Shown here piece by piece: positions 7,207 to 61,005 of a stretch of 64,000 nt of DNA. The notes under the pieces are model-generated. The model did not search any database. It was not told the DNA's origin and saw nothing but the letters and a program-made list of their open reading frames with translations. Within the stretch, counting starts at the first letter, position 1. Every line of letters starts with the position of its first letter. Both the position numbers and the translations under genes were made by a program. The DNA comes from an uncultured Candidatus Saccharibacteria bacterium (GTDB lineage: Bacteria > Patescibacteriota > Minisyncoccia > UBA6257 > WO2-44-18), in assembly GCA_964373675.1 (NCBI GenBank), contig CAYJVO010000002.1:3054-67053 (forward strand). The letters are read 5' to 3'.

Positions 7207-7297
7207 AACTATAACCTGTGCTATAACCTGTGCTATAAACTACATTATAAACTGTGCTATAAACTATACTATGCTATAAACTATACTATAAACTATT
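7207..7297. repeat. iteron-like tandem repeats (CTATAAAC/CTATAACCTGTG units, about 7 copies)
   Basis: Direct reading of 7207-7297 shows the tandem units. The block lies in a 710-bp non-coding region. Confidence 0.7.
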
Positions 7298-19139: not shown

Positions 19140-20239
19140 GAATTTAATGATAGCATTTTATTGTAAATAACGTTGTATAGCTGGGCAGTTTTCCCCCAAC
19201 TCATTGAACGCGCAAAAGAAATCGAATTTTTCGACATATCAAACCTCAAATCGGGATTAGATAATATTTTCTCCATAGCGGCTGAAGCGCTCTTTGGGTT
19301 CTGCGGACTTACCAAAATGCCGTTCTTCCCGTCCCTAACCGCGTCTTCCGCGCTAGTTTCTTTAGTAGTAATCACCGGCAATCCGGCGGCCGCCGCCTCC
19401 AAGAAAACCAGTCCAAAACCTTCAATGTCTTTGTTAACATCCTGCGGCATTAATATAAAAAGCTCGGCGTTTTTATAAACCGATATCAATTCTTCCTCCG
19501 ATAAATTTTCTAAAAAAACAACCCGATCTTGATACTTGATACTTGATACTTGCCGCTGAAGCGCTTCGTACTCCGGCCCTTTCCCGACAATCACGTATTT
19601 CAAACCTGGAAACTTCTTGGCTACTTCCGCGAATGCCGCGATTGAATATTCGTATCCTTTTCGTTGCTTTAATGTTCCAACGCTTAATATATAAGGTTTC
19701 AATTTCTGGACTTCCGATGTCCCAATATTGACGTCAATGGTTTGGACATCGGAAGTCCCTGATATTGATTCGAATTTTGTAAAATCAACGCCGTGATTAA
19801 TAACAGAGATTTCCAAATCCGGCAAAAATTTCTGGATTTCTCTTTTGGTATTATTACTAACCGCTATTACCCTAAACGCTCTTTTATACGCCCATTTCAT
19901 AATCGGCCGTCTCCACCAGCTGTAAAACGGCTTAACCGCCCCGGTGCCAATGCCGGTTATAATTAGTTTTTTTCTTGATCCTAAAGATACTATGGCCGCA
20001 ATCACGCCATATGGCCAGCCATCCAAGGCATGAATAATATCGCAATATTTAAAGGCTCGACGAATACAGAAATAGAAAAAAGGTAATTGCCAACATTTTT
20101 TCGGCAAACCGCTATCATGAGTTAAAACTTCATATTGAAAATCTGGAACAATCTTTTCAAGAGCGCTGATTAGCGAATGATAAAACCGCCCGGCGCCAGT
20201 TTTATCGCTTAAATCATGATTAAGATAACAAATTTTCAT
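19136..20239 (-). CDS. GT4-family glycosyltransferase
   Basis: YVIVGKGPEYEAL...FGLVFLEAAAAGLPVITT is the GT4 C-domain signature. A heptamer-repeat-encoded loop (QVSSIKYQ) is present. Confidence 0.8.
   Translation of the reverse strand: MKICYLNHDLSDKTGAGRFYHSLISALEKIVPDFQYEVLTHDSGLPKKCWQLPFFYFCIRRAFKYCDIIHALDGWPYGVIAAIVSLGSRKKLIITGIGTGAVKPFYSWWRRPIMKWAYKRAFRVIAVSNNTKREIQKFLPDLEISVINHGVDFTKFESISGTSDVQTIDVNIGTSEVQKLKPYILSVGTLKQRKGYEYSIAAFAEVAKKFPGLKYVIVGKGPEYEALQRQVSSIKYQDRVVFLENLSEEELISVYKNAELFILMPQDVNKDIEGFGLVFLEAAAAGLPVITTKETSAEDAVRDGKNGILVSPQNPKSASAAMEKILSNPDLRFDMSKNSISFARSMSWGKTAQLYNVIYNKMLSLNS
19528..19552. repeat. heptamer tandem array (CTTGATA x3.5) inside GT4 CDS
   Basis: CTTGATACTTGATACTTGATACTTG. 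It is in-frame and encodes QVSSIKYQ. Confidence 0.8.
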
Positions 20240-24765: not shown

Positions 24766-25836
24766 TTATACGAAAACTTTTATTAGTTTTTCTATGAGGG
24801 TGGGTAAATTATGCCTCTCAATGATTAAGGTCCTCAGGCGTTTACCTATTTGTTTACGCTCTTCTTCGTTCAATATTATTAAATTTAAAATTTTATGCGC
24901 TAAATCAATCGGGTCCTGCGACTTAAACATTAATAAACGATCAAGATCGTGCGGGAAAATTTCTTTAAACGTCTCATTAGTTACTAATACCGGCAATTCG
25001 CAAGCCATCGCCTCTAAAGTAGTCTTATCAAAACTGCCAGTGCGCGTCAGGTTTACAAAAAGGTCGTGTTCATTGTAGATAATAACAGTCTGATAATTGG
25101 GGACCTTCGGACGAAATTCCACTAATGCCGGGAGATTCAATTCTTGTATTAAATTTTTAATTTTTTCATAATATTCTTTTTCATCCGGTTTGCCCGGCGT
25201 CGGCTCGCCAACGATCGTCAAACTAACATCTGACTTTGACTGTTGAATTATTGCCAGAGCGCGCAATAAAGTCTCTAAATCCTTTACCGGCGCAATCCTC
25301 CCTAAAAAAAGAACTTTGAACTTTGAACTTTGAACTTTGAACTTGAGCGGCTCAAACCGCTCTGTGTCTATTCCCTGCTGCAAAATCGTTAATTTTTTAC
25401 TTCTCAGCGGATAAGCCAGCCGAGTTGAGGTAACGATTTGATCTGCGAGCCAAGCGGCAAGCCGTAGTTTTAAATTAGCAAGATAATGCGCATACCACAG
25501 AATTATTTTTTTACCCCACAACTTCCAGAAAACTCCGCCTAAAATAATATATTCTGGATTCATATGCACAAAAACAGCGTCGTAATCATTCCTCAATCGC
25601 CAAATATATTTATAAAATCTCAAAATATAAATTAACCGTCGCATCCAATTCCTAATTCCTTCTTTACCCAACGAATACACCTTTACACTCTCCGGTAATT
25701 CCGCTCGGCCACGATAAAGACAAATCACCGAGATTTGTTTAACTCGCTGTGCCAATTCCTCAATCCAACGGTGATAGATGCCTAAAACATCATCATCTTT
25801 GTCTACTTTTTGGGTGATGAATAACAATCTTGCCAT
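24766..25836 (-). CDS. GT4-family glycosyltransferase
   Basis: FLGRIAPVKDLETL...NLPALVEFRPKV. A heptamer-encoded loop (KFKVQSSKFK) is present. Confidence 0.75.
   Translation of the reverse strand: MARLLFITQKVDKDDDVLGIYHRWIEELAQRVKQISVICLYRGRAELPESVKVYSLGKEGIRNWMRRLIYILRFYKYIWRLRNDYDAVFVHMNPEYIILGGVFWKLWGKKIILWYAHYLANLKLRLAAWLADQIVTSTRLAYPLRSKKLTILQQGIDTERFEPLKFKVQSSKFKVLFLGRIAPVKDLETLLRALAIIQQSKSDVSLTIVGEPTPGKPDEKEYYEKIKNLIQELNLPALVEFRPKVPNYQTVIIYNEHDLFVNLTRTGSFDKTTLEAMACELPVLVTNETFKEIFPHDLDRLLMFKSQDPIDLAHKILNLIILNEEERKQIGKRLRTLIIERHNLPTLIEKLIKVFV
25311..25346. repeat. heptamer tandem array (GAACTTT x5) inside GT4 CDS
   Basis: GAACTTTGAACTTTGAACTTTGAACTTTGAACTTGA. It is in-frame. Confidence 0.85.
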
Positions 25837-26975
25837 GATTTTTTAATTGCATCTAAATACTGCTGCTTAGTTGGCCAATTTTTTAAAAGGTTATTCTGCC
25901 CATCAATAACTCTCCTTCGTTCCGCGGGATTGGCTATTAACTCTTCTAAAACCTCGATGAGCCGCTTTTTGTCGCCTACCGGCACCACTCGGCCAATAGC
26001 CGCACCGACATCGGTCATAACCACCGGCAGACCGGCCGCCGCCGCCTCAACCGCCGCCAGACCGTAACCTTCGTAGTTGGAGGTCAATAAAAATAAATCC
26101 GCGGTCTTGTAATAAGAAATCAGATCATCCGTCCAGGGCTCAATAATTGCGTTATTTTGCAATTTTAAATTTTCAATTTTAAATTTTAAATTTTGGCGTT
26201 CCGGACCATCGCCAACGATCAATAACAAAGGATTTCCGACGCTTGATGCCTGACGCTTGACGCGATTAAACGCCTCGATTGCTAATCCGATATTTTTCTC
26301 TCGCGACAATCGAGAGGCCACGAGAATAATAAAATTGTGGCTCGGATATTTTCTGTGAAGATCGATCTTGATTGGAGATTTTTTTATTTTTTTAACGTCA
26401 ACAAAAATTGGCCGCACTTCAATTTTGGACTCGGGATAATCAATTTGCGAAATAACGGATTTTTTAATCCGATCACTAACTACCCGCAGGCGGTCGGCCT
26501 TTTTAATTAAAAACTTCGCCAGCAAAACCCGGATTTTATTCTTTAATGACTCCTTCGCGAAATACGGGCTTAAAAAATCCGTATGCGCTTGAAGCTCTAA
26601 CGGAATTTTGAATTTCTTTTTCAGAGGATAGCCCACTAAGCCGGTCTCAAAAGGATCCTGCGCCGTTACTAGATAATCCGAATGCTTCAAGCTTTTATCC
26701 GAATTATCCGAACTCAAAATATATTTGGCGATTTTGTAGGCATCCCAAAAATAAAAAGGCTTGAGGCGCGTATTGGTGGAATAAATCCAAGCGTTCGCAG
26801 TTATTGCTTTTTTGTTCGGGGCATTCGGATAGCGGTTCGTATTATTCGGATTATCTTTTGTGTAAACTATGATGTGCAGCTCCTCGACAAGTTGAGCGTA
26901 CTCAATCATCCTCTGCCGAACAGCCGAGTTTTCTTTAAAAATATTTGAATCTGCTGATAACATTAAAAGCCGCAT
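25803..26975 (-). CDS. GT4-family glycosyltransferase
   Basis: LLLIVGDGPERQNL...GYGLAAVEAAAAGLPVVMTDVGA is the GT4 signature. Confidence 0.75.
   Translation of the reverse strand: MRLLMLSADSNIFKENSAVRQRMIEYAQLVEELHIIVYTKDNPNNTNRYPNAPNKKAITANAWIYSTNTRLKPFYFWDAYKIAKYILSSDNSDKSLKHSDYLVTAQDPFETGLVGYPLKKKFKIPLELQAHTDFLSPYFAKESLKNKIRVLLAKFLIKKADRLRVVSDRIKKSVISQIDYPESKIEVRPIFVDVKKIKKSPIKIDLHRKYPSHNFIILVASRLSREKNIGLAIEAFNRVKRQASSVGNPLLLIVGDGPERQNLKFKIENLKLQNNAIIEPWTDDLISYYKTADLFLLTSNYEGYGLAAVEAAAAGLPVVMTDVGAAIGRVVPVGDKKRLIEVLEELIANPAERRRVIDGQNNLLKNWPTKQQYLDAIKKSWQDCYSSPKK
26161..26194. repeat. heptamer tandem array (AATTTTA x5) inside GT4 CDS
   Basis: AATTTTAAATTTTCAATTTTAAATTTTAAATTTTG. It encodes LKFKIENLKLQN. 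Confidence 0.85.
26240..26264. repeat. degenerate heptamer array (GCTTGAT/GCCTGAC/GCTTGAC) inside GT4 CDS
   Basis: GCTTGATGCCTGACGCTTGACGCG. Confidence 0.6.
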
Positions 26976-28179: not shown

Positions 28180-30477
28180 TCAATAATTGAGTGTGTTTAA
28201 AATTTCTACTAGCTTTGTCATACAATTTCCTATTGAAAATTGTTTGGCCTTTTCTTTGGCATTTCTTACTATCTTTTCTCTAAAATTCTTATCACTGCCA
28301 ATTTTTCTAATAGCGGCCAGAATTTGTTCTTTGCGGTTGGGCTCAACCAAAATCCCTTCTTTGCCGTCATCAATGATTTCGGCTAAATTGCCGATCTTGG
28401 TAGTTATAACCGGCAGGCCGGCATTCATTGCTTCCACCACCTGAAATGAAAAACTCTCAAAAGAAGTATTTAAGACAAAAACCGTCACGCTATGCAATAA
28501 TTCCAATAATTTTTCTCGTGGAACGGCATCCAAGAAATCAACTTTATTTTTGACACCTGACACCTGACACTTGACACCGAGCGCTTCACGCTCTGGCCCG
28601 TCTCCCACAATCACCAATTTCCAGTCCGGCAAATCCCGCATTAAGTCAATCAAAACATCGAACCCCTTCCACGGCACCAGACGGCCAGCCGATAGAATGG
28701 TTTTGAGTTGATGAGTTGATGAGTTGATGAGTTTTTTGGATGGCGGATTATCTAGCTGTATGCCGTTGTAGATGACTTTCACTTTTTCCGGATTTTTTAT
28801 CCAGCCGCCGACTAGTTTTTGGAAGTACTGGCTGGGAGTGATAATTATCTTGGCCTGATTGGCAACAAACTTTTGCACGCTGCGCAATAATTCTGTTCGC
28901 AATCCATATCTTTTTTGCTGAAACTCATCAATAGAATCTTTAACCCCAAAACGCTGGGCCGCCTGCTCCCAAGCATAATCGCCGGCAACTCTCATAATAA
29001 AGGGCTTTCTCAAAACCTTGGCTGCCAGCATTGCCGGCAATCCTACGCTGACTGGATCCTGCGAATAAACAATGTCATTCCTCCGCGCCCTTAACAGACA
29101 TTTGAAAAAATAAATCAAATGGCGAATGCCAATCGGCCAGCGCCTGACAACCCGAAAGGGCAGAACCGCGATGCTCATTCCGTGCTTCGGCAATTCTTTT
29201 TCCAAAAGAGCGGTGTAAGTTGCCGGACCGCCGATCTCCGGAGGATAAATTCCGGTAGCTACTAAAAGTCGTGTAATTGGTAATTTGTAATTGGTAATTA
29301 GAGCTTGGAAAATATTTTTAATTTTTGATGCAATTTTGTCCCAGGAATAATTTTCTAAAACTAGCTTTCTTCCATTTTCAGCTATTTTGTTTCTTAGAAT
29401 ATCATTTTCCATCAAACCTTTTATCTTTCCAGCCACATCCTTAAAGTCATCAACTTGACAAAAAAGGCCCGTCTCGCCATCCTTTAAGAAATCAGAAATT
29501 CCCCCAACTGGAGTTCCGATAATTGGCAAGCCGGCCGCCATGGCTTCCAAAAAAGAATTGCCTAATCCTTCGGAACGAGATGGTCTTACAAAAATATCTG
29601 CCCCAGCCAAATAATTCGGTATCTTGTCCGGATCAACGTGGCCCAGAAACTCAATTTTGTCGGCTACTCCTAAATCCGAGGCTAGCTTTTTTAACTTTTC
29701 TTCATCTGGTCCAGAACCTAAAACCTGACACCTGATACTTGACACCTGATACTTCTTTAATTCTGCTACAGTTCGAATTAACGTATCAATGCCATTTTTA
29801 TGAACTAACCGCGAAGTTGTTATAAGGGTATAGGGTTTAGCGTTTAGGGTTTTAGATTTTTCACTATACGCCATACGCTTAACGCTAAACGCTTCAACAT
29901 TCACGCCATTCGGCACTACTTCAATCGGACACCTGGCTCCGTGCCGTCGCGCAAAATCCATCAGATAATTGCTGATTACTTGAATATAATCGGCCTTTTT
30001 GAATAAAAACCGCCACAAAGGATAAAAAATCCCCACCCGCCTCAAAATATGCGATTCGCTATCCCCCTCCTGCAGCGTAAGAAGAAGCGGGATGGACGGA
30101 TGCCGCAACTTGAAAAAAAGCGCGGCCATGCCGCCATAAGAAGCCATTATTGCCCAAATTAACTTAAAGGACTTTTTTTTGTGTTCTTGCTCTGCCGTTC
30201 GCCAAGCGCGAAAAGCGTACAAAATTTTTTTAAAAAAGTGGCCGTAATAATCGTGCTGGTTGAGGCCGCCGCTCCCGATCCTAATTACCTCAACATTGCT
30301 TATCTTTTCCCGCGAAAGCCAATGCCGGTCAAATTTGTAGGTAAAACAAAAAAAATTATCATCCGGCAGCCGATCAGTAATTTCTTTAACTGCCACTTCC
30401 GCGCCTCCCACGAAAGGAAAATAAGCGGTGCTGAAAATAACGATTTTAGGACTCATAAATCTTTTCTGTTTCTTCAA
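28180..30477 (-). CDS. tandem double GT4 glycosyltransferase (two GT-B units, 765 aa)
   Basis: Two GT4 signatures: VLGSGPDEEKL...GLGNSFLEAMAAGLPIIGT and VIVGDGPEREAL...SFQVVEAMNAGLPVITT. The gene contains five heptamer/octamer arrays in loop positions. Confidence 0.75.
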   Translation of the reverse strand: MKKQKRFMSPKIVIFSTAYFPFVGGAEVAVKEITDRLPDDNFFCFTYKFDRHWLSREKISNVEVIRIGSGGLNQHDYYGHFFKKILYAFRAWRTAEQEHKKKSFKLIWAIMASYGGMAALFFKLRHPSIPLLLTLQEGDSESHILRRVGIFYPLWRFLFKKADYIQVISNYLMDFARRHGARCPIEVVPNGVNVEAFSVKRMAYSEKSKTLNAKPYTLITTSRLVHKNGIDTLIRTVAELKKYQVSSIRCQVLGSGPDEEKLKKLASDLGVADKIEFLGHVDPDKIPNYLAGADIFVRPSRSEGLGNSFLEAMAAGLPIIGTPVGGISDFLKDGETGLFCQVDDFKDVAGKIKGLMENDILRNKIAENGRKLVLENYSWDKIASKIKNIFQALITNYKLPITRLLVATGIYPPEIGGPATYTALLEKELPKHGMSIAVLPFRVVRRWPIGIRHLIYFFKCLLRARRNDIVYSQDPVSVGLPAMLAAKVLRKPFIMRVAGDYAWEQAAQRFGVKDSIDEFQQKRYGLRTELLRSVQKFVANQAKIIITPSQYFQKLVGGWIKNPEKVKVIYNGIQLDNPPSKKLINSSTHQLKTILSAGRLVPWKGFDVLIDLMRDLPDWKLVIVGDGPEREALGVKCQVSGVKNKVDFLDAVPREKLLELLHSVTVFVLNTSFESFSFQVVEAMNAGLPVITTKIGNLAEIIDDGKEGILVEPNRKEQILAAIRKIGSDKNFREKIVRNAKEKAKQFSIGNCMTKLVEILNTLNY
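28551..28578. repeat. heptamer tandem array (TGACACC x4) inside double-GT4 CDS
   Basis: TGACACCTGACACCTGACACTTGACACC. It encodes GVKCQVSGVK. Confidence 0.85.
28704..28733. repeat. octamer tandem array (TGAGTTGA x3.5) inside double-GT4 CDS
   Basis: TGAGTTGATGAGTTGATGAGTTGATGAGTT. It encodes LINSSTHQLK. Confidence 0.8.
29274..29301. repeat. heptamer tandem array (TAATTGG x4) inside double-GT4 CDS
   Basis: TAATTGGTAATTTGTAATTGGTAATTAG. Confidence 0.8.
29724..29754. repeat. heptamer tandem array (CCTGAYA x4.4) inside double-GT4 CDS
   Basis: CCTGACACCTGATACTTGACACCTGATACTT. It encodes KYQVSSIRCQV. Confidence 0.85.
29832..29858. repeat. heptamer tandem array (AGGGTTT x4) inside double-GT4 CDS
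   Basis: AGGGTTTAGCGTTTAGGGTTTTAGATT. Confidence 0.7.
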
Positions 30478-35300: not shown

Positions 35301-36083
35301 TTTAACTACAAAAGAATCGGTGAGTTTTAGACGGTGGTCGGATCCAAAGGTTTTGGCATCGCCAATGCGAACGCCGTCTTCATCCAAATGAACTACTCCG
35401 CTAAAAGCGGCATCATTACCCTGACCAGTCCTCTCAACTGTCAAAGACTTAACGGTAACATCGCCATCAGCCGATGCAGTTAATAATAATTTAGTAAATG
35501 GTCGGCTGGCGAATGATTCGCCGAATAGTCCTGAAACTGGTTGATCAGGAGCCAAAGTAACAGTCAAACCAGTACCCGTACCCGGCGTTGGAGCCGGAGC
35601 TGGGGCTGGAGCCGGAGCTGGGGCTGGAGCCGCTGCCAGCGAAGCATACTTAGCCCGAGATTTAGAACCAAAGTATCCTGCCGCTGGAGAAACGGCGCTA
35701 GCCGCCTGCCACTTGGCAACAGCAGATTGAGACAACGAACCAAAATAGGTCGTCTCATTGCCGGACGAACCAGAGCCGCTTGACGCTACCGGATATCCGG
35801 ATGCGTTAAGATATTGCTGCAAGCATTTCACGTCATCCCCTCTTACACCCACGGTGAGGTCGCGAGTGAAATTGCAAGAAACAGAAACGCCTGCGCCGGC
35901 CTGAGCCGTGGCTAATTTTGCCTGCAATTGCTGAATCTGAGCTAACAAGGCATTAATTTGAACTTGCAGCTCAGACACGCTCTGCGCGTGAGCTATTGGA
36001 ATCAGCATCGCTGATCCAGATAGCCAAATCGCCGTTGTCGCTGAAAGGACAACAGACGAAATTTTCTTAGTTAAATTACTCAT
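32301..36083 (-). CDS. large cell-surface protein (signal anchor, coiled-coil, peptidoglycan-binding domain, (PA)n linker, long Thr/Ser/Gly/Asp-rich beta domains)
   Basis: 1260 aa with an N-terminal hydrophobic anchor and a coiled-coil segment (LQVQINALLAQIQQLQAKLATAQAG). A PG-binding-like segment follows (GDDVKCLQQYLNASGYPV...FGSLSQSAVAKWQAA), then PAPAPAPAPAPAP. The remainder is low-complexity and beta-rich. Confidence 0.7.
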   Translation of the reverse strand: MSNLTKKISSVVLSATTAIWLSGSAMLIPIAHAQSVSELQVQINALLAQIQQLQAKLATAQAGAGVSVSCNFTRDLTVGVRGDDVKCLQQYLNASGYPVASSGSGSSGNETTYFGSLSQSAVAKWQAASAVSPAAGYFGSKSRAKYASLAAAPAPAPAPAPAPAPTPGTGTGLTVTLAPDQPVSGLFGESFASRPFTKLLLTASADGDVTVKSLTVERTGQGNDAAFSGVVHLDEDGVRIGDAKTFGSDHRLKLTDSFVVKAGQTRTITLAGDSDSDQNDYNGQLITLTLVGVETNGAAVNATFPLTGNVMTVNSTLTIGSVTLDVGPLDPRNNVTKEIGTKGYIFTALKMTAGSNEDVLVKSVRLNQSGSAATSDLGNTKIYLDGVAYDVEISSDGKYYTAKFGSGVKIEKGLNKEVYIKGDILSGSNRTIDFDLYRLADVKVTGLTYGYDILPIGSGEAAADSTDDDNDFQTNNPRYDASQATIGAGTLTVEKATAVVSQNIAENLGDQPLGGFLADVKGEDITTAAMNFDVALTEAAGTGGSIDTNDITNIKLLDENGNVIAGPVDGQAGYNNAIRFTDTVTLKVGRHVYKLVGKLGTDFSQNDQIQASTTANGDWTTVRGLSTAQTITPGGGTVTMSAMTMKTADLRVTISTDTATTSPDQNVVRGTNAYSFAKYVLDATESGEDVKVTQMVLDLTTSYPANTADELSNCQLFDGATVITSGSNTVNPTNDDAAGADKTFTLDTGLVIPKGTSKILTLKCNLTAGGTSEFVGWGLINAASTIVSTGVTSGTSLSETITADNGRTIIPQTSGTLTLSLDSASPGLKLVQAGTVDQTLAVFRLDAIYEDIRLDQIGLQIASSSSDNGQANASNSPSDLTKVTLWDGATKVGEAIFSSDYATATLTGFTVPKDTQKLLTVKADIAPIGVNLSQAVPGHLLTINWDGGWGDAPDDDAAEGEQGLKATGISSGSTIYNGADDDAVDADTNSSGGRIVKAIPTLTKLATSGKFSNTSDQILYRFKVEAPAGTNGVSLYKFTFNLSTNTTSVTQPSDTAVFAVTNLRAFCYSDSGFSLGSCGSSSGLLNQFGLAIADGNEANRDFDASGGDGTVTDADSDVDVPVLFNPTDTSGATAAAIRIPAGETRWFELKADVTGASSTPTITTKLLGDAAWNAVQCDAAATENVVSACDYSQTAAASSAAGRFAATASLIDALVEADEDFIWSDNATNTTQSIASDDWFTGFLLSGLPTVSMSSEVLSF

Positions 36084-37083: not shown

Positions 37084-37165
37084 ATCCGTATCAGGTATCA
37101 AGTGTCAAGAATTGAAATTTGCTAATGTTATAAAAAAATGTAAACCTGATACTTGAAACATGAAA
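37084..37165. promoter_or_regulatory. divergent intergenic region: inverted heptamer arrays (GTATCAGGTATCAAGTGTCAAG / CCTGATACTTGAAACATGAAACC) flanking a 33-bp AT-rich core
   Basis: The two arrays are in opposite orientation around AATTGAAATTTGCTAATGTTATAAAAAAATGTA, which carries TTGAAA and TATAAA hexamers, between the regulator and galU. Confidence 0.5.
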
Positions 37166-37984
37166 CCCGCAACTAAAGTATCAACTGCCGTTCTACCGGT
37201 TGCCGGACTGGGAACCAGATTAATGCCTTTAACACTCCACCAGCCAAAAGCCATGGTCGGTATTATTGATCGGCCGGTTATTCATTATGTAATTGACGAG
37301 GTGTTGACTGCTGGCATCAAAAACATTGTTATCGTGATCGGGCCCAAACAAAAAGAATTTAAAAAATATATTCAATATCTCAAAAAATGCGATCCGGAAT
37401 GGCAAAAATTGAAAATTCATTTTGATTTTGCAATCCAAAAGATGCCCCGCGGAAACGGAGAGGCGATTTTATGCGCAGAAAGATTTATTAAAAAACAACC
37501 CTTCTTGCTTTGTTTCGGCGATGAGATTTTAGCAGCTAAAGAATCGCCGCTCAAAACCATGCTTCAATTATTTTATAAAACCAATCTCCCCGCCCTAATC
37601 GTGGAACCGGTTCCTAAAAAACTGATTCCTCAATACGGGATAGTGAAAATCAAAGATGGCGAAATTTTAGACATTGTGGAGAAGCCAAAAATTAAAGAAG
37701 CTCCCTCAAATCTGGCCATTATCGGTCGTTATATCATTACGCCGGAAATCCTGCCTTTTATCAAAAAATTGGCTGCTCAAACGCCGCTAGACCAAGAAAT
37801 ATATTTAGCAGACGCCCTTCGGCTCTATTTAAAAAATAGTGGGCGAATTCTTGGCTGGAGATTTACCGGACAAAGATTTGACGCTGGTTCCAAGCTCGGC
37901 ATCCTTAAAGCGCAAGCTTATTTTGGTATCCATCATAAAAAGCTTGGCAAAGAATTTAGAAAATTTCTTAAACGGAGTTTATGA
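37160..37984 (+). CDS. galU: UTP--glucose-1-phosphate uridylyltransferase
   Basis: LPVAGLGTRLMPLT...PKAMVGIIDRPVIHYVIDE is the GalU N-terminal signature. 274 aa. Confidence 0.8.
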   Translation: MKPATKVSTAVLPVAGLGTRLMPLTLHQPKAMVGIIDRPVIHYVIDEVLTAGIKNIVIVIGPKQKEFKKYIQYLKKCDPEWQKLKIHFDFAIQKMPRGNGEAILCAERFIKKQPFLLCFGDEILAAKESPLKTMLQLFYKTNLPALIVEPVPKKLIPQYGIVKIKDGEILDIVEKPKIKEAPSNLAIIGRYIITPEILPFIKKLAAQTPLDQEIYLADALRLYLKNSGRILGWRFTGQRFDAGSKLGILKAQAYFGIHHKKLGKEFRKFLKRSL

Positions 37985-41353: not shown

Positions 41354-41464
41354 GCTAACGCAAATAATGCTAACCTACGAATTTACACGAATGCCACGAA
41401 TTATTTGCGTATTCGCATATATTCGCATTGTTTGCATTATTTAATTTAGTTTAATAATAACAAA

Positions 41465-41491
41465 TTAGCACTCCCATTGCAAGAGTGCTAA
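41465..41491. promoter_or_regulatory. CIRCE operator (HrcA-binding inverted repeat) upstream of clpB
   Basis: TTAGCACTC-CCATTGCAA-GAGTGCTAA is a perfect match to the CIRCE consensus TTAGCACTC-N9-GAGTGCTAA. It lies about 115 nt upstream of the clpB start and overlaps the stop of the cysteine desulfurase gene. Confidence 0.8.
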
Positions 41492-42822
41492 CAAGATTTT
41501 TCGCCAACTATTTTTTCTAATATTTTCACAAAATAATCAATTTCCTTTTTAATTGTCTGCCGTCCAAAAGTAATCCGCAAACTTCCCAGAGCTCGCTCAT
41601 CCAAAAATCCCATTGCCTTCAGCACCGGCGATGGCTGAACAACTCGTGCTGAACAGGCGACGCCGGAAGAAACCGCAATGCCGACCAGGTCCAATTTTAT
41701 AACCAATTCATGCGCCTTTTGGCCGGGAAAATAAATATTCAAATTATTGGGAACGCGTTTCTCTAAAAAACCGTTAAGCTGGACCGCTGGGGCTTTTTTT
41801 AACTTTTTCCAGCAATAATCCCGTAATGTCCGAACTCGCTTTGCTTCTCTATTTCTTAGCGCTCTAGAAATCTCTACGGCTTTACCAAAACCGACTATTG
41901 AAGGCGTATTTGGCGTTCCGGACCACAAACCGCCCGGCTCCTGTCCCCCGCCGGTAACTATAGGCAAAATGGGTAATGTAAAATGCGACCTGGAATTTTT
42001 ATTCTGTTCTTGTCGCTTGTCGCTTGTCTCATTAAACATTTTCCCAACATACAACGCTCCAATTCCCTTAGGACCGTAAATCTTGTGCGCCGACAAAGTC
42101 ATTAAATCAACGCCCAGCTGATCAACATTGCAGTTTAAATACTGAAAGGCCTGAACGGCGTCGGTGTGGAGAAGGGGGTAGAATGTAGAATTTTGAATAT
42201 TGAATTTAGGATTTTTATTTTTCCAATATTCTATATTCTGTATTCTATATTCTTGAATCGCTTCGGCGATTTCCGCAATTGGCTGAATGGTCCCCACCTC
42301 ATTATTCACATACATCACTGAAACCAAAACCGTCCGCTCGTTGAGGGCGGTTTCTAATTTTTTCAAATCAACGAAGCCATCGCGCGAAACCGGAATATAA
42401 ACCACTTCCACGCCTTCTTTTTCCAAATCTTTCGCCGTTTCCAAAACCGACGCGTGTTCAAAAGCTGAAATGATAAGGCGAGGAGTTAGAATATGGGATT
42501 TAGAATCTAGGGATTTTTTATTTTTAGAAAGAGCCCCGTTCCTCAATCCTATATTCTGAATTCTAAATTCTTTTATTGCTCCCCGCAGCGCCAAATTATT
42601 CGCTTCCGTCGCCGACCCCGTAAAAATTATTTCATCGTATTTAGCGCCAATCGCTTCGGCAATTGTCTTGCGGGCCTTAAAAATAGCGGCCGACGCCTCT
42701 TGTCCAAGTTGGTGTACTGATCCTGCGTTCCCATAAACTTCGCTAAAATACGGGTTCATGGCCGCTTTAACATGTTTATCCACCGGTGCTGACGCCGCGT
42801 AATCTAAATACATACGTTTCAT
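41488..42822 (-). CDS. cysteine desulfurase (IscS/NifS family) with three low-complexity insertions
   Basis: Class V aminotransferase fold with SAHKIYGPKGIGALYV (PLP-Lys region) and the C-terminal SSGVACS active-site Cys loop. Three insertions are encoded by heptamer arrays at 41993-42030, 42178-42258 and 42486-42573. Confidence 0.8.
   Translation of the reverse strand: MKRMYLDYAASAPVDKHVKAAMNPYFSEVYGNAGSVHQLGQEASAAIFKARKTIAEAIGAKYDEIIFTGSATEANNLALRGAIKEFRIQNIGLRNGALSKNKKSLDSKSHILTPRLIISAFEHASVLETAKDLEKEGVEVVYIPVSRDGFVDLKKLETALNERTVLVSVMYVNNEVGTIQPIAEIAEAIQEYRIQNIEYWKNKNPKFNIQNSTFYPLLHTDAVQAFQYLNCNVDQLGVDLMTLSAHKIYGPKGIGALYVGKMFNETSDKRQEQNKNSRSHFTLPILPIVTGGGQEPGGLWSGTPNTPSIVGFGKAVEISRALRNREAKRVRTLRDYCWKKLKKAPAVQLNGFLEKRVPNNLNIYFPGQKAHELVIKLDLVGIAVSSGVACSARVVQPSPVLKAMGFLDERALGSLRITFGRQTIKKEIDYFVKILEKIVGEKSC
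42178..42258. repeat. palindromic pair of heptamer arrays (GTAGAAT... / ...ATATTCT) inside cysteine desulfurase CDS
   Basis: GTAGAATGTAGAATTTTGAATATTGAAT ... AATATTCTATATTCTGTATTCTATATTCT around a TTTTATTTTTCC centre. It is in-frame. Confidence 0.8.
42486..42573. repeat. second palindromic heptamer-array pair (TAGAATA/TGGGATT ... ATTCTGA/ATTCTAA) inside cysteine desulfurase CDS
   Basis: TAGAATATGGGATTTAGAATCTAGGGATT TTTTATTTTTAG ... AATCCTATATTCTGAATTCTAAATTC. It is in-frame. Confidence 0.8.
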
Positions 42823-42888: not shown

Positions 42889-43371
42889 ATGCAATTATTG
42901 TTTAACAATTCCCTTGGCGCCAAACTAACCCCTGATGATGTCATCGGCGAAATAATCAAATTCATGAACGCTGATCCTCATCGCTGTTATAAAGTCATCA
43001 TCGGAACTGATTCGGAGCGTTCCGCTGACAACACCGCCGATTTTGTAACGGCAATTGTCATTCACCGCTTAGGAAATGGCGGGCGATACTTTTGGCGACG
43101 GATTGAACCAAAAACCAAATATCACACCTTAAGGGGCCGCATCACTGGAGAAGTTTTGATGTCTTTGGACATTGCCCGGGAATTACTTCAGGCTATGAAA
43201 AATTACCAAGTTCCGAAATTTGATTTTGAAATTCATGTGGATGTTGGGGAAAACGGCGCGACTAAAACAATGATTCAGGAACTAGTCGGCATGATTCGGG
43301 CTAATAATTTTGAAGCCAAAACCAAACCCGAAAGCTACGCCGCCAGCAAAGTCGCGGACCGCCATATTTAG
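42889..43371 (+). CDS. RNase H-like fold protein (YkuK/DUF458-like)
   Basis: 160 aa. The KVIIGTDSE strand with a catalytic-type Asp resembles the DUF458 family. Assignment is from memory of the family motif. Confidence 0.35.
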   Translation: MQLLFNNSLGAKLTPDDVIGEIIKFMNADPHRCYKVIIGTDSERSADNTADFVTAIVIHRLGNGGRYFWRRIEPKTKYHTLRGRITGEVLMSLDIARELLQAMKNYQVPKFDFEIHVDVGENGATKTMIQELVGMIRANNFEAKTKPESYAASKVADRHI

Positions 43372-43398
43372 TTTCAAGTTTCAGGTGTCAGGTATCAA
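43369..43398. repeat. heptamer array (reverse orientation; AGTTTCAGGTGTCAGGTATCAAG) 5' of four-helix-bundle gene
   Basis: Reverse complement is CTTGATACCTGACACCTGAAACT. Confidence 0.75.
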
Positions 43399-43402
43399 GT
43401 AA

Positions 43403-43759
43403 ATGGAAAAGGGTTATAAAAAATTGATGGCCTACCGCGAAGGTCACAAATTAGTTCTGCAAACTTATCTTGCAACTAGTAAGTTTCCTAAGTCAGAATT
43501 ATTCGGACTTGTTTCTCAAATGCGTAGGGCGGCGGTGTCTGTGGTGGCAAACATCTTAGAAGGCCAGGCCAGAATAAGTAAAAAGGAATTTAAAAATTTC
43601 ATCTCTATCACTAATGGATCCCTTGTTGAATTGGAATATTATCTTGAACTATCACGAGAATTGAATTACATTAACAGGAACGATTATGAGGAAGTAGAAA
43701 AGCAAAGAGCTCTTACTGGCTCTTTATTGGGTGGATTACTTCGTTACCTTAAATCTTAA
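43403..43759 (+). CDS. four-helix-bundle protein (23S rRNA intervening-sequence protein family; Avd-like)
   Basis: 118 aa. YREGHKLVLQTY...LVSQMRRAAVSVVANILEG...NGSLVELEYYLELS matches the TIGR02436-type four-helix-bundle family. Confidence 0.7.
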   Translation: MEKGYKKLMAYREGHKLVLQTYLATSKFPKSELFGLVSQMRRAAVSVVANILEGQARISKKEFKNFISITNGSLVELEYYLELSRELNYINRNDYEEVEKQRALTGSLLGGLLRYLKS

Positions 43760-43830
43760 CTTGACACCTGACACCTGATACCTGATACCTGACACATAAC
43801 ACCTGACACCTGATACATGATACATGACAC
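43759..43830. repeat. heptamer array, about 10 units (CTTGACA CCTGACA CCTGATA ... CATGACA), 3' of four-helix-bundle gene and overlapping start of next ORF
   Basis: Direct reading of 43759-43830. This is the longest array in the window, in the opposite orientation to 43369-43398. Confidence 0.85.
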
Positions 43831-44386
43831 TTTAGTAATTGATATTGAAACCAAAAATACCTTCGCCGAAGTCGGCGGTCAAGAAAATGTCAAAAAGTTA
43901 GATGCCTCTTTTGTGGGCGTCTATTCGTATAATCAAAACAAGTACCTGTCATTTTTTGAAAATCAATTTGGCGAACTTAACAAGTTTTTAAAAACTGCCG
44001 GATTAATAATTGGCTTTAGTATTAACCGCTTTGACATTCCGGTTTTAGAAAAATATTTAGACTTTAATATTTGGTCCATTCCCCGTCTAGATCTTTTAGA
44101 AGAAATTGAAATTGGTTTTGGCAATCGGATTAGTTTGGATGTGCTGGCGAAAACTAATTTAGGCATCGGCAAAACCCACCACGGCCTAGAAGCGATCAAA
44201 TTTTATAAAGAGCGAAATTGGAAAGAGCTGGAAAGCTACTGCCTTAATGACGTGAAAATCACCAAGGAACTTTACGAACTCGCCAAAAAACAAAAGCACC
44301 TCTCCATCCCCGACCGCACCACCGGCGTTTTAACAAAGGTGAACTTTAACTTTCCCGAAATCATCTTCCCGCAAACGCTTTTATAA
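43817..44386 (+). CDS. DEDDy-type 3'-5' exonuclease domain protein
   Basis: LVIDIETKN is Exo I (D-x-E), and YCLNDVKITKELYE is the Exo III Y-x3-D. 189 aa. Confidence 0.5.
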   Translation: MIHDTLVIDIETKNTFAEVGGQENVKKLDASFVGVYSYNQNKYLSFFENQFGELNKFLKTAGLIIGFSINRFDIPVLEKYLDFNIWSIPRLDLLEEIEIGFGNRISLDVLAKTNLGIGKTHHGLEAIKFYKERNWKELESYCLNDVKITKELYELAKKQKHLSIPDRTTGVLTKVNFNFPEIIFPQTLL

Positions 44387-44607: not shown

Positions 44608-44937
44608 CTAATCGTCGCAGTGATGGTTGCCGTGCCCATGGCAATGTCCGCAATGATTACATGGCGTATGCTGATGAGTCTGGCTCTGATTCTGGTTTTG
44701 ATTTTGACTCTGAGACTGCTTAACGCTAACACTGTTTCTTACTTCCACGCGTGTCTGATTAATGACGGGCGGCGGCACATAAACATTGCTATTAGTAAGA
44801 CCCAATGCAATTCCCACATTCCAGCCCACATTCCCGTCCTGATCGCCATTAACGCCGGCATAAGGCGTCATTCCGTAATGCCAACCCTGACAGCCAATAG
44901 TCGCTGCCAGCAAAACCGCGACTGGCACAAATCTCAT
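44608..44937 (-). CDS. small secreted His/Cys-rich (metal-binding?) lipoprotein-like protein
   Basis: Good SD (AGGAGA 6 nt upstream). N-terminal signal with LAATIGC lipobox-like sequence, a QSQSQNQNQNQSQ linker and C-terminal CNHCGHCHGHGNHHC. The fully overlapping plus-strand ORF lacks these features. Confidence 0.5.
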   Translation of the reverse strand: MRFVPVAVLLAATIGCQGWHYGMTPYAGVNGDQDGNVGWNVGIALGLTNSNVYVPPPVINQTRVEVRNSVSVKQSQSQNQNQNQSQTHQHTPCNHCGHCHGHGNHHCDD

Positions 44938-45226: not shown

Positions 45227-46162
45227 TTATCCGGAGATTAATTTTTTAAATTCTTTCAGTTTGGCTAAAAAGGTTTTTTTATCCTTAGCTTCTAAGTTCA
45301 GGCGCAGGAGGTCTTCGGTCTGTGATGGCCGCACATTAAACCACCAGGCCCCAAATTCCATTTTCAGACCATCTAGATGAGAAAGTCTTTGGGCTTCTTT
45401 TTTATATTTCTGTTCAATCTTTGTTAAAATTTTTTCTTTGTCGCTGACTCTAAAATTTATCTCTCCGGAACGATGATATTTTGGTAAGCCATCAATCCAC
45501 TCACCCAAACTCAAGCCTTGATACCTGATACCTGATATCTGATTCATAAAATAAATCGCCGTCAAAATTCCTGAATCCCAAACCGCGCTGAATTCCTTAA
45601 ACTTAAAGTAGTAATGCCCGGAAGTTTCGGCAGCAAAATCAATTTTCTTTTTATTCATCAGTTTTTTAATAAAGTAATGGCCAACTCGCGAATTAATAAT
45701 TTTTTTGCCATCGGCTGAAATCAATTCTCTGGCTAAATAGCCGGCGCGAACATCTAAAATCAAGGGTCCTTTAAAACTTCTACTTATCAACACTGCCACC
45801 GCATCCGGCGCCACCGGCTGGCCACGATCGTCTAAGAAAAATACCCGATCACCATCCGCGTCAAAAATAATGCCGAGGTCGGCTTTATGTTTACGCACTG
45901 CTGTCCGCAAATCATTAAACGCATCTCTCCTCCATGGATCCGGCCCATGCGCCGGAAAACGACCATCAGGTCTATCATTAATTAAAATAGGCTTAACTCT
46001 TGATACTTGACGCTTGACACTTGATACTCGGAAAAGTTCTTTAAGAACTTTTCCGGTGGTTCCATTAGAGCAATCAAAAACAACTTTTAAAGCTCTTTCT
46101 AGCTTTAAAAACTTTTTCAAAAAATTTATGTATAACTCCAAATAATCCATGTCGCATTTCAC
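45227..46162 (-). CDS. phosphoglucomutase/phosphomannomutase, C-terminal domains II-IV (split from N-terminal ORF; GTG start)
   Basis: 311 aa starting at a GTG that overlaps the stop of the upstream ORF (AAAATGTGAAATGC). Contains in-frame heptamer arrays at 45527-45546 and 45999-46028. Confidence 0.65.
   Translation of the reverse strand: MKCDMDYLELYINFLKKFLKLERALKVVFDCSNGTTGKVLKELFRVSSVKRQVSRVKPILINDRPDGRFPAHGPDPWRRDAFNDLRTAVRKHKADLGIIFDADGDRVFFLDDRGQPVAPDAVAVLISRSFKGPLILDVRAGYLARELISADGKKIINSRVGHYFIKKLMNKKKIDFAAETSGHYYFKFKEFSAVWDSGILTAIYFMNQISGIRYQGLSLGEWIDGLPKYHRSGEINFRVSDKEKILTKIEQKYKKEAQRLSHLDGLKMEFGAWWFNVRPSQTEDLLRLNLEAKDKKTFLAKLKEFKKLISG
45527..45546. repeat. heptamer array (CCTGATA x3) inside PMM CDS
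   Basis: CTTGATACCTGATACCTGATATCTGATT. It encodes QISGIRYQG. Confidence 0.75.
45999..46028. repeat. heptamer array (CTTGAYR x4) inside PMM CDS
   Basis: CTTGATACTTGACGCTTGACACTTGATACT. It encodes VSSVKRQVSRVK. Confidence 0.75.
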
Positions 46163-46614
46163 ATTTTGCCTTTTACCATCGATAAAATTTCCTTGCCGCT
46201 GATTGGCGCTGCTTTCGGCCCAACAATTTTTAACCCGTTGTATTCTTTTGGGTTATGGGAAGCCGTGATTATAATCCCGCCAATTGCCTTAAAATGGTTT
46301 ACCAAAAAATAAAGCATTGGCGTGGTGATCATTCCCGCTTCCACAATCTTGACACCTGATACCTGACACATGACACGCACCATCGTTTCATACAACGCCG
46401 GCGAGCTCAATCTCGCGTCGTGTCCCACCATTACAACTTTTGACTTTTGACCTTCCCTCGACCTGAGCTCGGGACGAAGGTTGGCTTTTGACTTGAAAAA
46501 ATAGCGACCCAACGCGTAGGCAATTCTAGCCGCTATTTTTTCATTTATCTCCTCCGGATACCGACCGCGGATGTCGTATGCTTTGAATATTGCTTTATTT
46601 ATCATTAGTTTCAT
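46159..46614 (-). CDS. phosphoglucomutase/phosphomannomutase, N-terminal domain I (contains active-site TASHNP)
   Basis: GGIIITASHNPKEYNGLKIVG is the PGM/PMM phosphoserine loop. 151 aa, ending 4 nt into the next ORF. Confidence 0.7.
   Translation of the reverse strand: MKLMINKAIFKAYDIRGRYPEEINEKIAARIAYALGRYFFKSKANLRPELRSREGQKSKVVMVGHDARLSSPALYETMVRVMCQVSGVKIVEAGMITTPMLYFLVNHFKAIGGIIITASHNPKEYNGLKIVGPKAAPISGKEILSMVKGKM
46339..46368. repeat. heptamer array (CTTGACA CCTGATA CCTGACA CATGACA) inside PMM N-domain CDS
   Basis: It encodes VMCQVSGVKI. Confidence 0.8.
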
Positions 46615-60102: not shown

Positions 60103-61005
60103 CTATAGGGCCGTTTCAATTATATAATCTAAAAGTTTCTGAAAACTTATCCCAACTGCTTTCGCCCCCTGCGGCAACAAACTCATCTCTGTCATTCCCG
60201 GCAAGGTATTAATCTCCAAAACGTATAAATTACTGTTCTCTATACTCTTTCCTCTATCCTCTAAAATAAAGTCTGTCCGTGAATATCCCTTCGCCCCAAT
60301 CGCTTTATGGGCCTTCAGTGCCGCCTGCTGGATTTTTTTAATCATCGGCGGCGGCAATTTCGGCGGCGTAATTTCCCGCGACGCGCCTTTTACGTATTTC
60401 GCTTTATAATCAAAAAACTTTGATTTAGAAATAATCTCCGTTGGCAAAAGCGGCCTCAACTGGCCGCCGACTTCCAGCACTCCGCAAGTCAGCTCACGGC
60501 CGGCAATATATTCCTGTGCCATGATTTTCCTGGAATGACCCGCGGCATTTTTCACTGCCATTTCCAATTCTTTAAAATTTCTGGCGATATTCACGCCGAC
60601 GCTGGATCCCCGATCCGCCGGTTTTATTACTATAGGAAAACCATTTGGCCGACCGGGCACCAGCAATCCGACTTTTTTAAAAACTGCTTCGGAGGCCAAC
60701 TTATCCATCCCTAACTCACTGGCCTGACTGCCGGATCCCGTAAAAGGAATTTCCAGTTTTTCCAAAATCCGCTGAACCGTCCCATCTTCACCATATTCTC
60801 CGTGCATAGCGATAAAAACCACATCAAAATTTTTCTTAAGCTGATCAAAGGTAATTGGCCACTTGCAGGATTTAGAAACCCTTATCGGTCTGGCATCATA
60901 CTTGGCGTGATCTAAAAATTTCAGCACCATTTGGCCACTCTTTAAAGAAATAGCGTGCTCTGCCGACGGCCCGCCCATTAAAACGGCGACGCGAATTTTC
61001 TTCAT
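60103..61005 (-). CDS. ddl: D-alanine--D-alanine ligase
   Basis: MKKIRVAVLMGGPSAEHAISLKSG at the N-terminus, an ATP-grasp core, and LEINTLPGMT at the C-terminus. Confidence 0.9.
   Translation of the reverse strand: MKKIRVAVLMGGPSAEHAISLKSGQMVLKFLDHAKYDARPIRVSKSCKWPITFDQLKKNFDVVFIAMHGEYGEDGTVQRILEKLEIPFTGSGSQASELGMDKLASEAVFKKVGLLVPGRPNGFPIVIKPADRGSSVGVNIARNFKELEMAVKNAAGHSRKIMAQEYIAGRELTCGVLEVGGQLRPLLPTEIISKSKFFDYKAKYVKGASREITPPKLPPPMIKKIQQAALKAHKAIGAKGYSRTDFILEDRGKSIENSNLYVLEINTLPGMTEMSLLPQGAKAVGISFQKLLDYIIETAL

Follow-up and report, generated by a model that had tools for sequence, protein, structure and literature searches.

The desulfurase gene and its product

The stretch of DNA analysed here, to which we refer as the window, comprises 64 000 nucleotides (64 kb) of contig CAYJVO010000002.1 from an uncultured Candidatus Saccharibacteria bacterium. 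On its minus strand an uninterrupted open reading frame (ORF) at 41488-42822 encodes a cysteine desulfurase of the IscS/NifS type (class I), with a product of 444 amino acids (aa) against about 372-382 aa in canonical cysteine desulfurases. Our subject is the three in-frame segments, here called inserts 1-3, in which the protein exceeds its relatives, and the arrays of 7-nt units that encode them; similar arrays surround a nearby gene of the S23p/23S_rRNA_IVP family.

The protein matched Pfam family PF00266 (aminotransferase class V; 5e-68), and its best solved relatives were IscS/NifS enzymes of 382-406 aa (4r5f, E-value 4e-79; 1p3w, 2e-71). An earlier note on this DNA had quoted three peptides as extra segments relative to canonical IscS/NifS; we located them at aa 84-107, 191-214 and 264-281. 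HMMER alignments to solved IscS placed the surplus at exactly those positions, leaving aa about 83-112, 190-216 and 263-282 of the query unmatched; in comparison with A. fulgidus IscS2 (4r5f, 382 aa) the excess amounts to about 21, 23 and 20 aa at inserts 1, 2 and 3.

The earlier note described the protein as an essential housekeeping enzyme dependent on pyridoxal phosphate (PLP); its catalytic residues and fold are intact. Residues H123, D221, K247 (the PLP lysine, in SAHKIYGPKG) and C390 (catalytic, in SSGVACS) are all present and invariant in 30 orthologues. The AlphaFold2 model (predicted local confidence, pLDDT, of 81.5) matched E. coli IscS 3lvj in Foldseek with a target template-modelling (TM) score of 0.90, and superposed on the IscS of E. 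coli, of human and of A. fulgidus with target-normalised TM scores of 0.87-0.91; the PDB entries 3lvj, 4eb5 and 1p3w gave values in this range. The protein nevertheless missed the NCBIfam equivalog cut-offs both for IscS (TIGR02006, 321 bits versus 643) and for NifS (TIGR03402, 338 versus 531), and the best label for it is 'cysteine desulfurase family protein'. A role as housekeeping IscS is therefore no more than plausible; no second desulfurase was found in the 64-kb window.

In the model the inserts are placed at helix/strand boundaries. The left arms of inserts 1 and 2 are predicted to prolong the preceding helices (71-100 and 182-203), and pLDDT drops below 50 at aa 96-108 in insert 1, 207-212 in insert 2 and 263-280 in insert 3. 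The insert-bearing sequence is not an assembly artefact, since it matches a Logan assembly made independently (L003) with 100% identity along 4474 nt.

DNA structure of the inserts

Tandem Repeats Finder reported arrays of period 7 in each of the three segments (42009-42028, 42226-42253, 42545-42571) and one of period 14 at 42482-42516, in agreement with the proposal that the segments are encoded in-frame by heptamer arrays. The insert at site 2 (42177-42256, minus strand; aa about 190-215, YRIQNIEYWKNKNPKFNIQNSTFY) is an AGAATAT/ATATTCT palindrome with arms of 32 nt, 78% complementary, around the centre ATTTTTATTTTT; on the coding strand four AGAATAY units are followed by the loop AAAAATAAAAAT and then by four units of the complementary type. 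The mRNA strand folded with a z-score of -5.4; the value for the opposite strand was -4.7.

The insert at site 1 (42486-42573, minus strand; aa about 84-112, beginning RIQNIGLRNGALSKNKKSLDSKSH) is an imperfect palindrome of AGAATNN units with an A-rich sense loop. Its arms stand asymmetrically on either side of TTTTTTATTTTT, with about 20 additional bases (AGAAAGAGCCCCGTTCCTC) separating the centre from the right arm, and the arms differ from each other by an indel; the fold z-score was -2.9 on the plus strand and -0.85 on the mRNA strand. Sites 1 and 2 belong to one AGAATNN family and have the loop motif in common. The insert at site 3 (41993-42046, minus strand; aa about 263-282, NETSDKRQEQNKNSRSHF) carries three perfect CTTGTCG units, GACAAGC on the coding strand (100% matches), within a weak 27-nt inverted repeat (I3; 74% complementary, z-score -2.3). 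Two of the inserts had been called palindromic in the earlier note: site 2 is so strongly and site 1 imperfectly, while the weak inverted repeat of site 3 had been overlooked.

The loop motif AAAAATAAAAAT was not enriched across the window (9 matches versus 7.4 expected). At gathering thresholds Rfam gave no match in the window other than two tRNAs, and no rRNA was found there either.

Sister contig and orthologues

The desulfurase has its nearest orthologue (P0002, with 68% aa identity) on contig L001, which has about 15 kb of gene order in common with the window; outside the inserts the two desulfurase genes are 74% identical at the nucleotide level. The window holds 62-63 nt at site 1 and 42 nt at site 2 that L001 lacks, the gene being otherwise unchanged there. 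Further sequences present in the window only are an 84-nt palindrome with ACGAAT/ATTCGT units in the spacer that separates the stop of the desulfurase from the start of clpB (41354-41437, minus strand; z-score -4.8), most of an intergenic palindrome of GGTATCA/TGATACC type (37087-37167) and an entire S23p/IVP gene with its flanking arrays. Site 3 is filled in both genomes to the same length: the first half (GACAAGCGAC) is common, and the second half differs, with a 21-nt tandem duplication in its place in L001. We saw no direct repeat that could represent a target-site duplication at the filled sites in comparison with the empty sites of L001, the borders of the inserts being ambiguous.

Among the 120 best homologues of the desulfurase all named sources were Patescibacteria/Parcubacteria, and protein lengths ranged from 384 to 513 aa. 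The length variation clusters at the three loops that carry the inserts and at a fourth (NG...LPN). At these four sites lengths are bimodal, empty and filled forms being about 10-15 aa apart, and sites 1-3 are mostly filled. We considered whether insert lengths are multiples of 7 aa (21 nt) and rejected the idea, as the length distributions at the four sites had no modulo-7 pattern. The occupancy of the same three or four loops in most Paceibacterota orthologues is at variance with the simple recent invasion suggested in the earlier note and points to long-standing hot spots with turnover. On the other hand, the inserts do not behave as conserved loops, the outcome that would have spoken for lineage-specific parts of the protein: they vary in presence, length and sequence, inserts 1 and 2 are missing from L001, and in another species the site-3 insert is exchanged between strains.

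The DNA of seven insert-bearing orthologues was compared, together with more recovered by a profile search of genome contigs with the orthologue alignment; the latter yielded mostly distant homologues of canonical length, which provided outgroup and density controls. Many inserts in the recovered DNA have period 7 and are mostly palindromic, with the unit family varying by genome. We observed AGGGTTT palindromes at sites 1-3 in L084 and L208, ACGAATA palindromes at sites 1, 2 and 4 with AGAAATT at site 3 in L087, AGAATAT units in L085 and L086, and an AGAATAT palindrome at site 3, not at site 2, in L006. Families of the orthologues recur at other loci of the window: one GT4 glycosyltransferase gene contains AGGGTTT, and the spacer before clpB contains ACGAAT. 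The single repeat family assumed in the earlier note gave way to several with a 7-nt period (AGAATAT, AGGGTTT, ACGAATA, GGTGTCA and others).

A desulfurase homologue on metagenome contig L134 (38% identity) carries a perfect array of four AGAATGC units (AECRMQNAE), apparently with no added length, in a conserved helix upstream of the LRDYFW motif, where several Parcubacteria orthologues read ..SNSRELENKRI... Arrays may therefore overwrite existing sequence as well as insert into it.

Copying, exchange and loss of inserts

At the nucleotide level the inserts are discrete entities: a few permissive loops of the protein receive copies of them, lose them or have one replaced by another. In the desulfurase gene of L208 the three inserts are copies of about 84 nt with 93-95% identity, the non-repetitive loop included. 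The site-2 copies of L208 and L084 are about 96% identical, as against 70% for the host genes (48% at third codon positions). Insert 2 of the window has 83% nucleotide identity to that of L085 (85% at third positions) versus 65% for the gene core (43%), and insert 1 has 85% identity to that of L086 (91% at third positions) versus a core value of 65%; third codon positions are therefore 85-91% identical within inserts and 43-48% in the core. Beyond the similarity of the heptamers, the loops and the array boundaries are also common to the compared inserts.

The AGGGTTT family occurs in a phosphoglucomutase (PGM) gene and in pilus genes as well. L208 and L084 hold at least seven copies, some of them 93-96% identical, compared with two AGAATNN copies in one gene of the window; an alignment of seven AGGGTTT copies gave a consensus hairpin with a few compensatory pair changes.

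An exchange at short evolutionary distance was observed in the GW2011_GWA2_47_8b species group of Parcubacteria, where eleven desulfurases with at least 98% identity exist in two forms (P0024 versus P0015-P0030). The sole difference between P0024 and the ten near-identical proteins is that the entire site-3 insert has been swapped for an unrelated one, and the common form has nearly the same peptide at sites 1 and 3 (AIQKIQIHSNNSNGNSDI). Judged from these protein sequences, the swap represents cassette-like turnover at the strain level.

We compared the folding of the two strands for 16 in-ORF palindromes from the window, L006, L084-L087 and L208. For 15 of them the antisense strand is predicted to form the more stable fold of the two, with an average difference of 7 kcal/mol. 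Since the arms around IVP genes show the same antisense-favouring bias in five of six cases, the asymmetry is not specific to the coding context.

Inverted heptamer arrays around S23p/IVP genes

Inverted heptamer arms of the kind seen in the inserts also enclose S23p/IVP genes. In the window, a unit resembling the intervening sequences (IVSs) of rRNA genes occupies 43369-43834 on the plus strand: its S23p/23S_rRNA_IVP gene (43403-43759; a product of 118 aa matching PF05635 at 2.8e-32 and TIGR02436) stands between inverted GGTGTCA/TGACACC arrays (43369-43402 and 43757-43834), which pair at -38.8 kcal/mol (z-score -8.8). The same arrangement was found in L209 (z-score of arm pairing -10.1), L228 (-8.0), L219, L232 and L208. 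We examined eight IVP genes, seven intact ORFs and one internally deleted remnant; seven are enclosed by inverted heptamer arrays (z-scores from -2.5 to -10) and the eighth is flanked by an array on a single side. The array-enclosed genes occupy four loci: the spacer between the RNaseH_like and RNase_H_2 genes, a position downstream of PNPase, the gatA-gatB gap and a position between pilin genes. Their arms are built of GTGTCAG, GCGTCAG, CATGTAA, AGGGTTT or AGCGTTT units, and the two arms co-vary between lineages (GGTGTCA/TGACACC versus GGCGTCA/TGACGCC).

In L208 a full IVP ORF lies between AGGGTTT/AAACCCT arms, the family to which the three desulfurase inserts of the same contig belong, and the arms of the mini-elements align with those of the IVP element over 35 and 23 nt. 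Adjoining the full IVP, a remnant IVP (the N-terminal 31 aa joined to the C-terminus) lies between AGCGTTT/AAACGCT arms. In the orthologous spacer of L084 an ORF-less heptamer palindrome, not significant by energy, replaces the IVP unit. The three desulfurase inserts have no S23p or other ORF of their own.

In the 23S rRNA IVS of Coxiella, terminal inverted repeats form a stem of 28 bp that surrounds an S23p ORF; three or four tandem GACAGAT heptamers, a number variable among strains, are located in the arm upstream of the ORF, and RNase III cuts at the first heptamer repeat (PMC4990558). An architecture with a heptamer-array stem and S23p in the loop is thus common to Coxiella and Patescibacteria, and the inserts of the desulfurase may be a miniature version of it that has no ORF.

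We entertained and rejected the possibility that the IVP unit of the window is a recent insertion in this genome, as homologues hold the same RNaseH_like/RNase_H_2 spacer in other lineages; given that position of its nearest homologues, the absence of the unit from L001 may be a loss.

The start codon and the first five codons of the RNase_H_2-like gene (43817-43834; ATGATACATGACACT) lie inside the right-arm array of the IVP unit of the window, and the N-terminus of its product reads MIHDTLVIDIETKN in the window versus MDKLVIDIETKN in the sister contig. In the type IV pilus cluster of L208 (1600-4660) AAACCCT arrays encode leader peptides of several pilin-like genes (e.g. MLNKNLNPKPSTLNSQR directly before GFTLIEILIV), and both the full and the truncated IVP ORFs read in-frame into downstream pilins.

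Heptamer arrays in the window and beyond

We counted 17 strict period-7 arrays in the window versus 0.33 +/- 0.54 expected (maximum 2) from dinucleotide-preserving shuffles of the window, a 50-fold enrichment; in the same test periods 4-6 and 8-12 were not enriched. With period 7 alone in such excess, the arrays are not a product of chance. Fourteen of the 17 are inside ORFs, namely those of five GT4 glycosyltransferases, two PGM ORFs, D-Ala-D-Ala ligase (Ddl) and the desulfurase. The heptamers vary by locus (GGTGTCA/GGTATCA, AGGGTTT, AGCGTTT, GAACTTT, AATTTTA, GTAATTG, AGAATAT and others). All seven intragenic arrays of TGAYAYY type are oriented with the TGA-free (stop-free) strand as the coding strand, and in all ten in-ORF palindromes found by an automated scan the A-rich loop is on the sense strand.

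In addition to the elements described above, an AGCGTTT/AAACGCT palindrome lies in-frame in a GT4 glycosyltransferase gene (29824-29896, minus strand; EAFSVKRMAYSEKSKTLNAKPYTL). Single non-palindromic in-frame arrays are exemplified by that at 19525-19557 (minus strand); further single arrays are at 25308-25347, 26156-26197, 26241-26264, 28548-28579, 29271-29302, 29713-29745, 45514-45545, 45998-46030, 46348-46377 and 60238-60265.

Some arrays coincide with unusual gene structures. The ORF at 28180-30477 (minus strand, 765 aa) is a fusion of two complete GT4 modules, and the GTAATTG array at 29271-29302 encodes the linker (..QALITNYKLPITRLLVATGIYPPEIGGP..) just where the stop and start of separate genes would fall, which suggests that arrays can fuse adjacent genes. 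Two arrays in GT4 genes are perfect (CTTGATA x3.6 at 19528-19552 and GAACTTT x4.9 at 25311-25344, both with 100% matches); as the addition or removal of a single unit would alter the reading frame, these arrays might serve as phase-variation switches for surface glycans. The PGM gene is split into two minus-strand ORFs that overlap by 4 nt, one of 311 aa with domains II-IV (45227-46162) and one of 151 aa with domain I (46159-46614), and the arrays at 45998-46030 and 46348-46377 are near the junction; the split is also present in L084, while L209 has a single gene of 470 aa. The small ORF at 44608-44937 (minus strand, 109 aa), in a region that aligns poorly to L001, encodes a protein that is hydrophobic at its N-terminus, contains a (QS/QN)n tract and has a tail rich in Cys and His (..CNHCGHCHGHGNHHCDD). 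Repeats of other periods comprise an intergenic 12-mer array (CTATAAACTGTG, about 7 copies, 7208-7296) and an 18-nt repeat (TGGAGCCGGAGCTGGGGC, x2.4, 35589-35632) in the gene of a PG_binding-like protein of 1260 aa.

Array density was 0.1-1.1 per kb in Patescibacteria loci (zero in a few); most of the roughly 60 loci from other phyla had no array at all, and the highest density among them was about 0.2 per kb. Scanning metagenomes for four consecutive AGAATNN units, we found at least 120 loci, with the array inside an ORF of at least 250 aa in at least 25 of them. Pfam assigned the hosts (9 of the ten largest, among the matches listed) to LeuRS, ValRS, GluRS, a GatA-type amidase, IspH/LytB, a GTPase, SpoIID, a radical-SAM enzyme and GT4. 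In one unrelated metagenomic GT4 gene (L149) an AGAATAG array is in the same loop as the palindrome at 29824-29896 of the window. The claim that the repeats reach core genes finds support in the desulfurase, PGM and Ddl genes of the window and, elsewhere, in LeuRS, ValRS, GluRS, the GatA-type amidase and IspH. The heptamer repeats are a class present across Patescibacteria, with several heptamer families. The full-text literature that we searched, a coverage outside of which subscription journals fall, held no account of heptamer palindromes in Patescibacteria, and in this lineage the hairpin repeat class is apparently undescribed.

Origin of the inserts

We consider it likely that the desulfurase inserts are dispersed palindromic heptamer repeats tolerated in-frame. 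Each insert consists of arrays of a 7-nt unit, usually two of them inverted around an A-rich loop, with a total of about 45-90 nt, and the extra protein segments would be translated in-frame copies of these short dispersed DNA repeats. As selfish or neutral palindromic elements, possibly ORF-less miniature relatives of IVS-type hairpin elements, they may be copied between sites by a process dependent on hairpins or repeats. Template switching or gene conversion between copies would need no dedicated enzyme; a more speculative route would employ a trans-acting factor, perhaps the nucleic-acid-binding, Avd-like pentamer of the IVP protein. Selection could then retain those copies that fall in surface loops, have a total length divisible by three, bear point variants that remove stops (e.g. 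AGAATAC, presumably favoured because AGAATAT would otherwise create TAG) and are oriented with the A-rich, Lys/Asn-coding loop on the sense strand. The product of an insert would be a helix extension with a disordered, hydrophilic loop rich in Lys and Asn, and the inserts are probably neutral or slightly deleterious passengers and not functional parts of the enzyme.

Several observations weigh against this account. The AGAATNN family is confined within the 64-kb window to the desulfurase gene, with two related copies, so that dispersal of this family is not seen in this genome. Since sites 1-3 are occupied in most of the 120 orthologues, ancient inserts evolving in place could explain much of what we observed, and as arrays of one family are inevitably about 80% identical, identity by itself proves neither orthology nor recent transfer. 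On the mRNA strand the site-1 hairpin does not reach significance, and the translation of the inserts is read from the open frame only. We found no transposase, reverse transcriptase or target-site duplication (the transposase search covered the DNA adjoining the examined elements), and insert boundaries are ambiguous. With respect to the IVP units, the closest IVP homologues are at the same locus in three lineages, which vertical inheritance fits as well as mobility does, and the mini-element loops are not significantly similar to what lies between the arms of the IVP element (local alignment against shuffles, p about 0.8). The candidate explanation of these loops as remnants of IVP coding sequence was rejected, the match being no better than in shuffles; only the arms align.

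The inserts could instead have arisen on the spot, as heptamer microsatellites produced by slippage in surface loops and made symmetric by quasi-palindrome template switching, with nothing moving between sites. Site 3 is indeed a plain array of three units, the loci of the window differ in their heptamer, the same loops are filled in most orthologues and perfect arrays such as that at 25311-25344 resemble fresh slippage products; in other bacteria, too, an excess of heptamer microsatellites has been put down to polymerase slippage (PMC4679880). Slippage with quasi-palindrome correction does account for site 3 and for the perfect arrays. It does not account for the near-identical copies of about 84 nt, loops included, at three sites of one gene and in other genes, for a family and its loop recurring across genomes with better conservation than the host gene, for the swap of a whole cassette between strains, or for the same families forming the arms around IVP genes, and as an explanation of the inserts at large we hold a local origin to be unlikely.

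Selection for the structure or for the peptide would give the inserts a role in the cell. A hairpin in RNA or DNA might regulate the host gene (through RNase III processing, mRNA stability or translational pausing between units of folding) or bind a nucleoid or IVP-type protein, a proposal that draws on nucleotides being better conserved than amino acids, on the few compensatory changes, on the resemblance of the stems around IVP genes to the RNase III substrates of rRNA IVSs and on the location of inserts at helix/strand boundaries. Yet two inserts are missing from the sister genome with the gene otherwise unchanged, the sequence families differ between orthologues and have no Rfam match, and the mRNA strand of site 1 gives no significant hairpin. 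An mRNA hairpin as the selected feature was rejected on the ground that the mRNA strand is the worse folder in all but one of the 16 in-ORF elements, and from the modelled folds we consider it unlikely that the hairpins act on the host mRNA; an adaptive nucleic-acid structure appears quite improbable to us. The peptides themselves might be selected for a role in the enzyme, e.g. for the binding of a partner at the site-3 loop, which would correspond to the basic patch through which E. coli IscS makes contact with CyaY, IscX and TusA. The recurrence of the sites and the predicted extension of helices by the left arms would suit such a role. Selected protein loops are nevertheless unlikely in the extreme, because the peptides diverge between orthologues while the DNA within a family does not; the low pLDDT, the variable presence, the strain-level cassette swap and the occurrence of the same DNA in unrelated proteins argue in the same direction.

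A specific link between the inserts and IVS/S23p elements is a tentative proposition, somewhat short of an even chance. IVS-type hairpins seem to be known so far solely as inserts in 23S rRNA that RNase III excises. We regard as possible, though rather doubtful, the broader idea that they are a general selfish class with heptamer-array stems, comprising in Patescibacteria IVP units located between genes and ORF-less in-frame miniatures in protein-coding genes, which would be copied and swapped as cassettes at permissive loops by a dedicated mechanism, perhaps one that depends on the IVP pentamer; if it is true, the miniatures would be a major source of insertions and disordered segments in proteins of the candidate phyla radiation.

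Relation to known repeat systems

By analogy, the closest functional precedent appears to be the Rickettsia palindromic element (RPE) and the closest structural one the S23p-bearing rRNA IVS. RPEs, reportedly introduced by Ogata et al. in 2000 and mentioned in PMC10969869 and PMC1779305, form sequence families of Rickettsiales (RPE-1 to RPE-8) of about 100-150 bp. Like them, the elements described here are short dispersed palindromes, present in-frame in genes that include housekeeping ones, which add surface peptides and are variably present among relatives. Descriptions of RPEs set the present elements apart, as these occur in Patescibacteria, measure 45-90 nt and have 7-nt periodic arms and A-rich loops; to our knowledge, RPE descriptions include no heptamer arrays, and we know of no link between RPEs and S23p/IVP. 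The best reading of the comparison is that the inserts resemble RPEs yet would form a distinct class.

The likeness to the 23S rRNA IVSs of Coxiella, Leptospira and Salmonella (PMC4990558) consists in an inverted-repeat stem around an ORF for S23p, a four-helix-bundle protein, the ORF being prone to decay; the copy-variable tandem heptamers of the stem arm have their counterpart at 43369-43834 of the window and in L208, L209, L219, L228 and L232. Classical IVSs are located in 23S helices 25/45 and excised by RNase III, whereas the units seen here lie between protein genes and their ORF-less forms within ORFs, where they would have to be translated.

Bacterial transposable elements of the miniature inverted-repeat kind (MITEs) such as Correia and Nezha (PMC10969869) are likewise small and have inverted arms; they have multiple copies, as may the present elements, and the two further agree in occasional in-frame insertion and in an apparent relation, via internal deletion, to a longer ORF-bearing form. 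Terminal inverted repeats and a size of 50-500 bp, by which MITEs are recognised, are found at sites 1 and 2 and in the palindromes at 41354-41437, 37087-37167 and 29824-29896. The term 'MITE-like' used in the earlier note is therefore apt for the shape; it does not extend to a target-site duplication or a transposase, neither of which was found. Unlike MITEs, the elements have, at the loci examined, no transposase-encoding parent, the only ORF-bearing relatives carrying the four-helix-bundle S23p/IVP gene, and their arms are tandem arrays and not unique terminal inverted repeats.

The cyanobacterial STRR and the TAACTGA repeats of Beggiatoaceae, Cyanobacteria and Bacteroidetes (PMC4679880) have a 7-nt unit at many loci per genome, as here. 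In the TAACTGA repeats stop codons similarly constrain the orientation, one orientation being translatable, and TCAGTTA is one base from the TCAGGTA units that we observed. In BOGUAY, however, 169 direct heptamer sets were reported versus one inverted, mainly in intergenic positions (PMC4679880), while in the present case arrays are often paired in inverted orientation, often lie inside ORFs and are built from many different units. Borg tandem repeats (PMC9879509) resemble the inserts as fast-evolving nucleotide repeats in ORFs that add low-complexity or disordered segments; they are direct arrays with in-ORF units divisible by three, in contrast to the palindromic arrays of a 7-nt unit described here, in which the reading frame can be kept only through the total length of the insert.

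Significance

Proteins and rRNAs of the candidate phyla radiation are known for unexplained insertions. Our data point to a source of such insertions at the nucleotide level, palindromic heptamer-array repeats, of which core enzymes acquire copies in their surface loops, exchange them there and lose them. There are practical consequences: the inserts depress profile-HMM scores, as in the desulfurase that falls below the equivalog cut-offs, and their length heterogeneity can mislead alignments and phylogenies; they may also be of use as strain-level markers.

The probable kinship of the inserts with IVS/S23p elements is the most interesting outcome. The data connect two subjects so far treated separately, the S23p/four-helix-bundle genes of rRNA IVSs and heptamer microsatellites. 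How the S23p genes of rRNA IVSs arose and whether they move have been standing questions since 1990. Should the link hold, a lineage that is rich in these elements would allow tests of what S23p/IVP does and of how IVSs spread.

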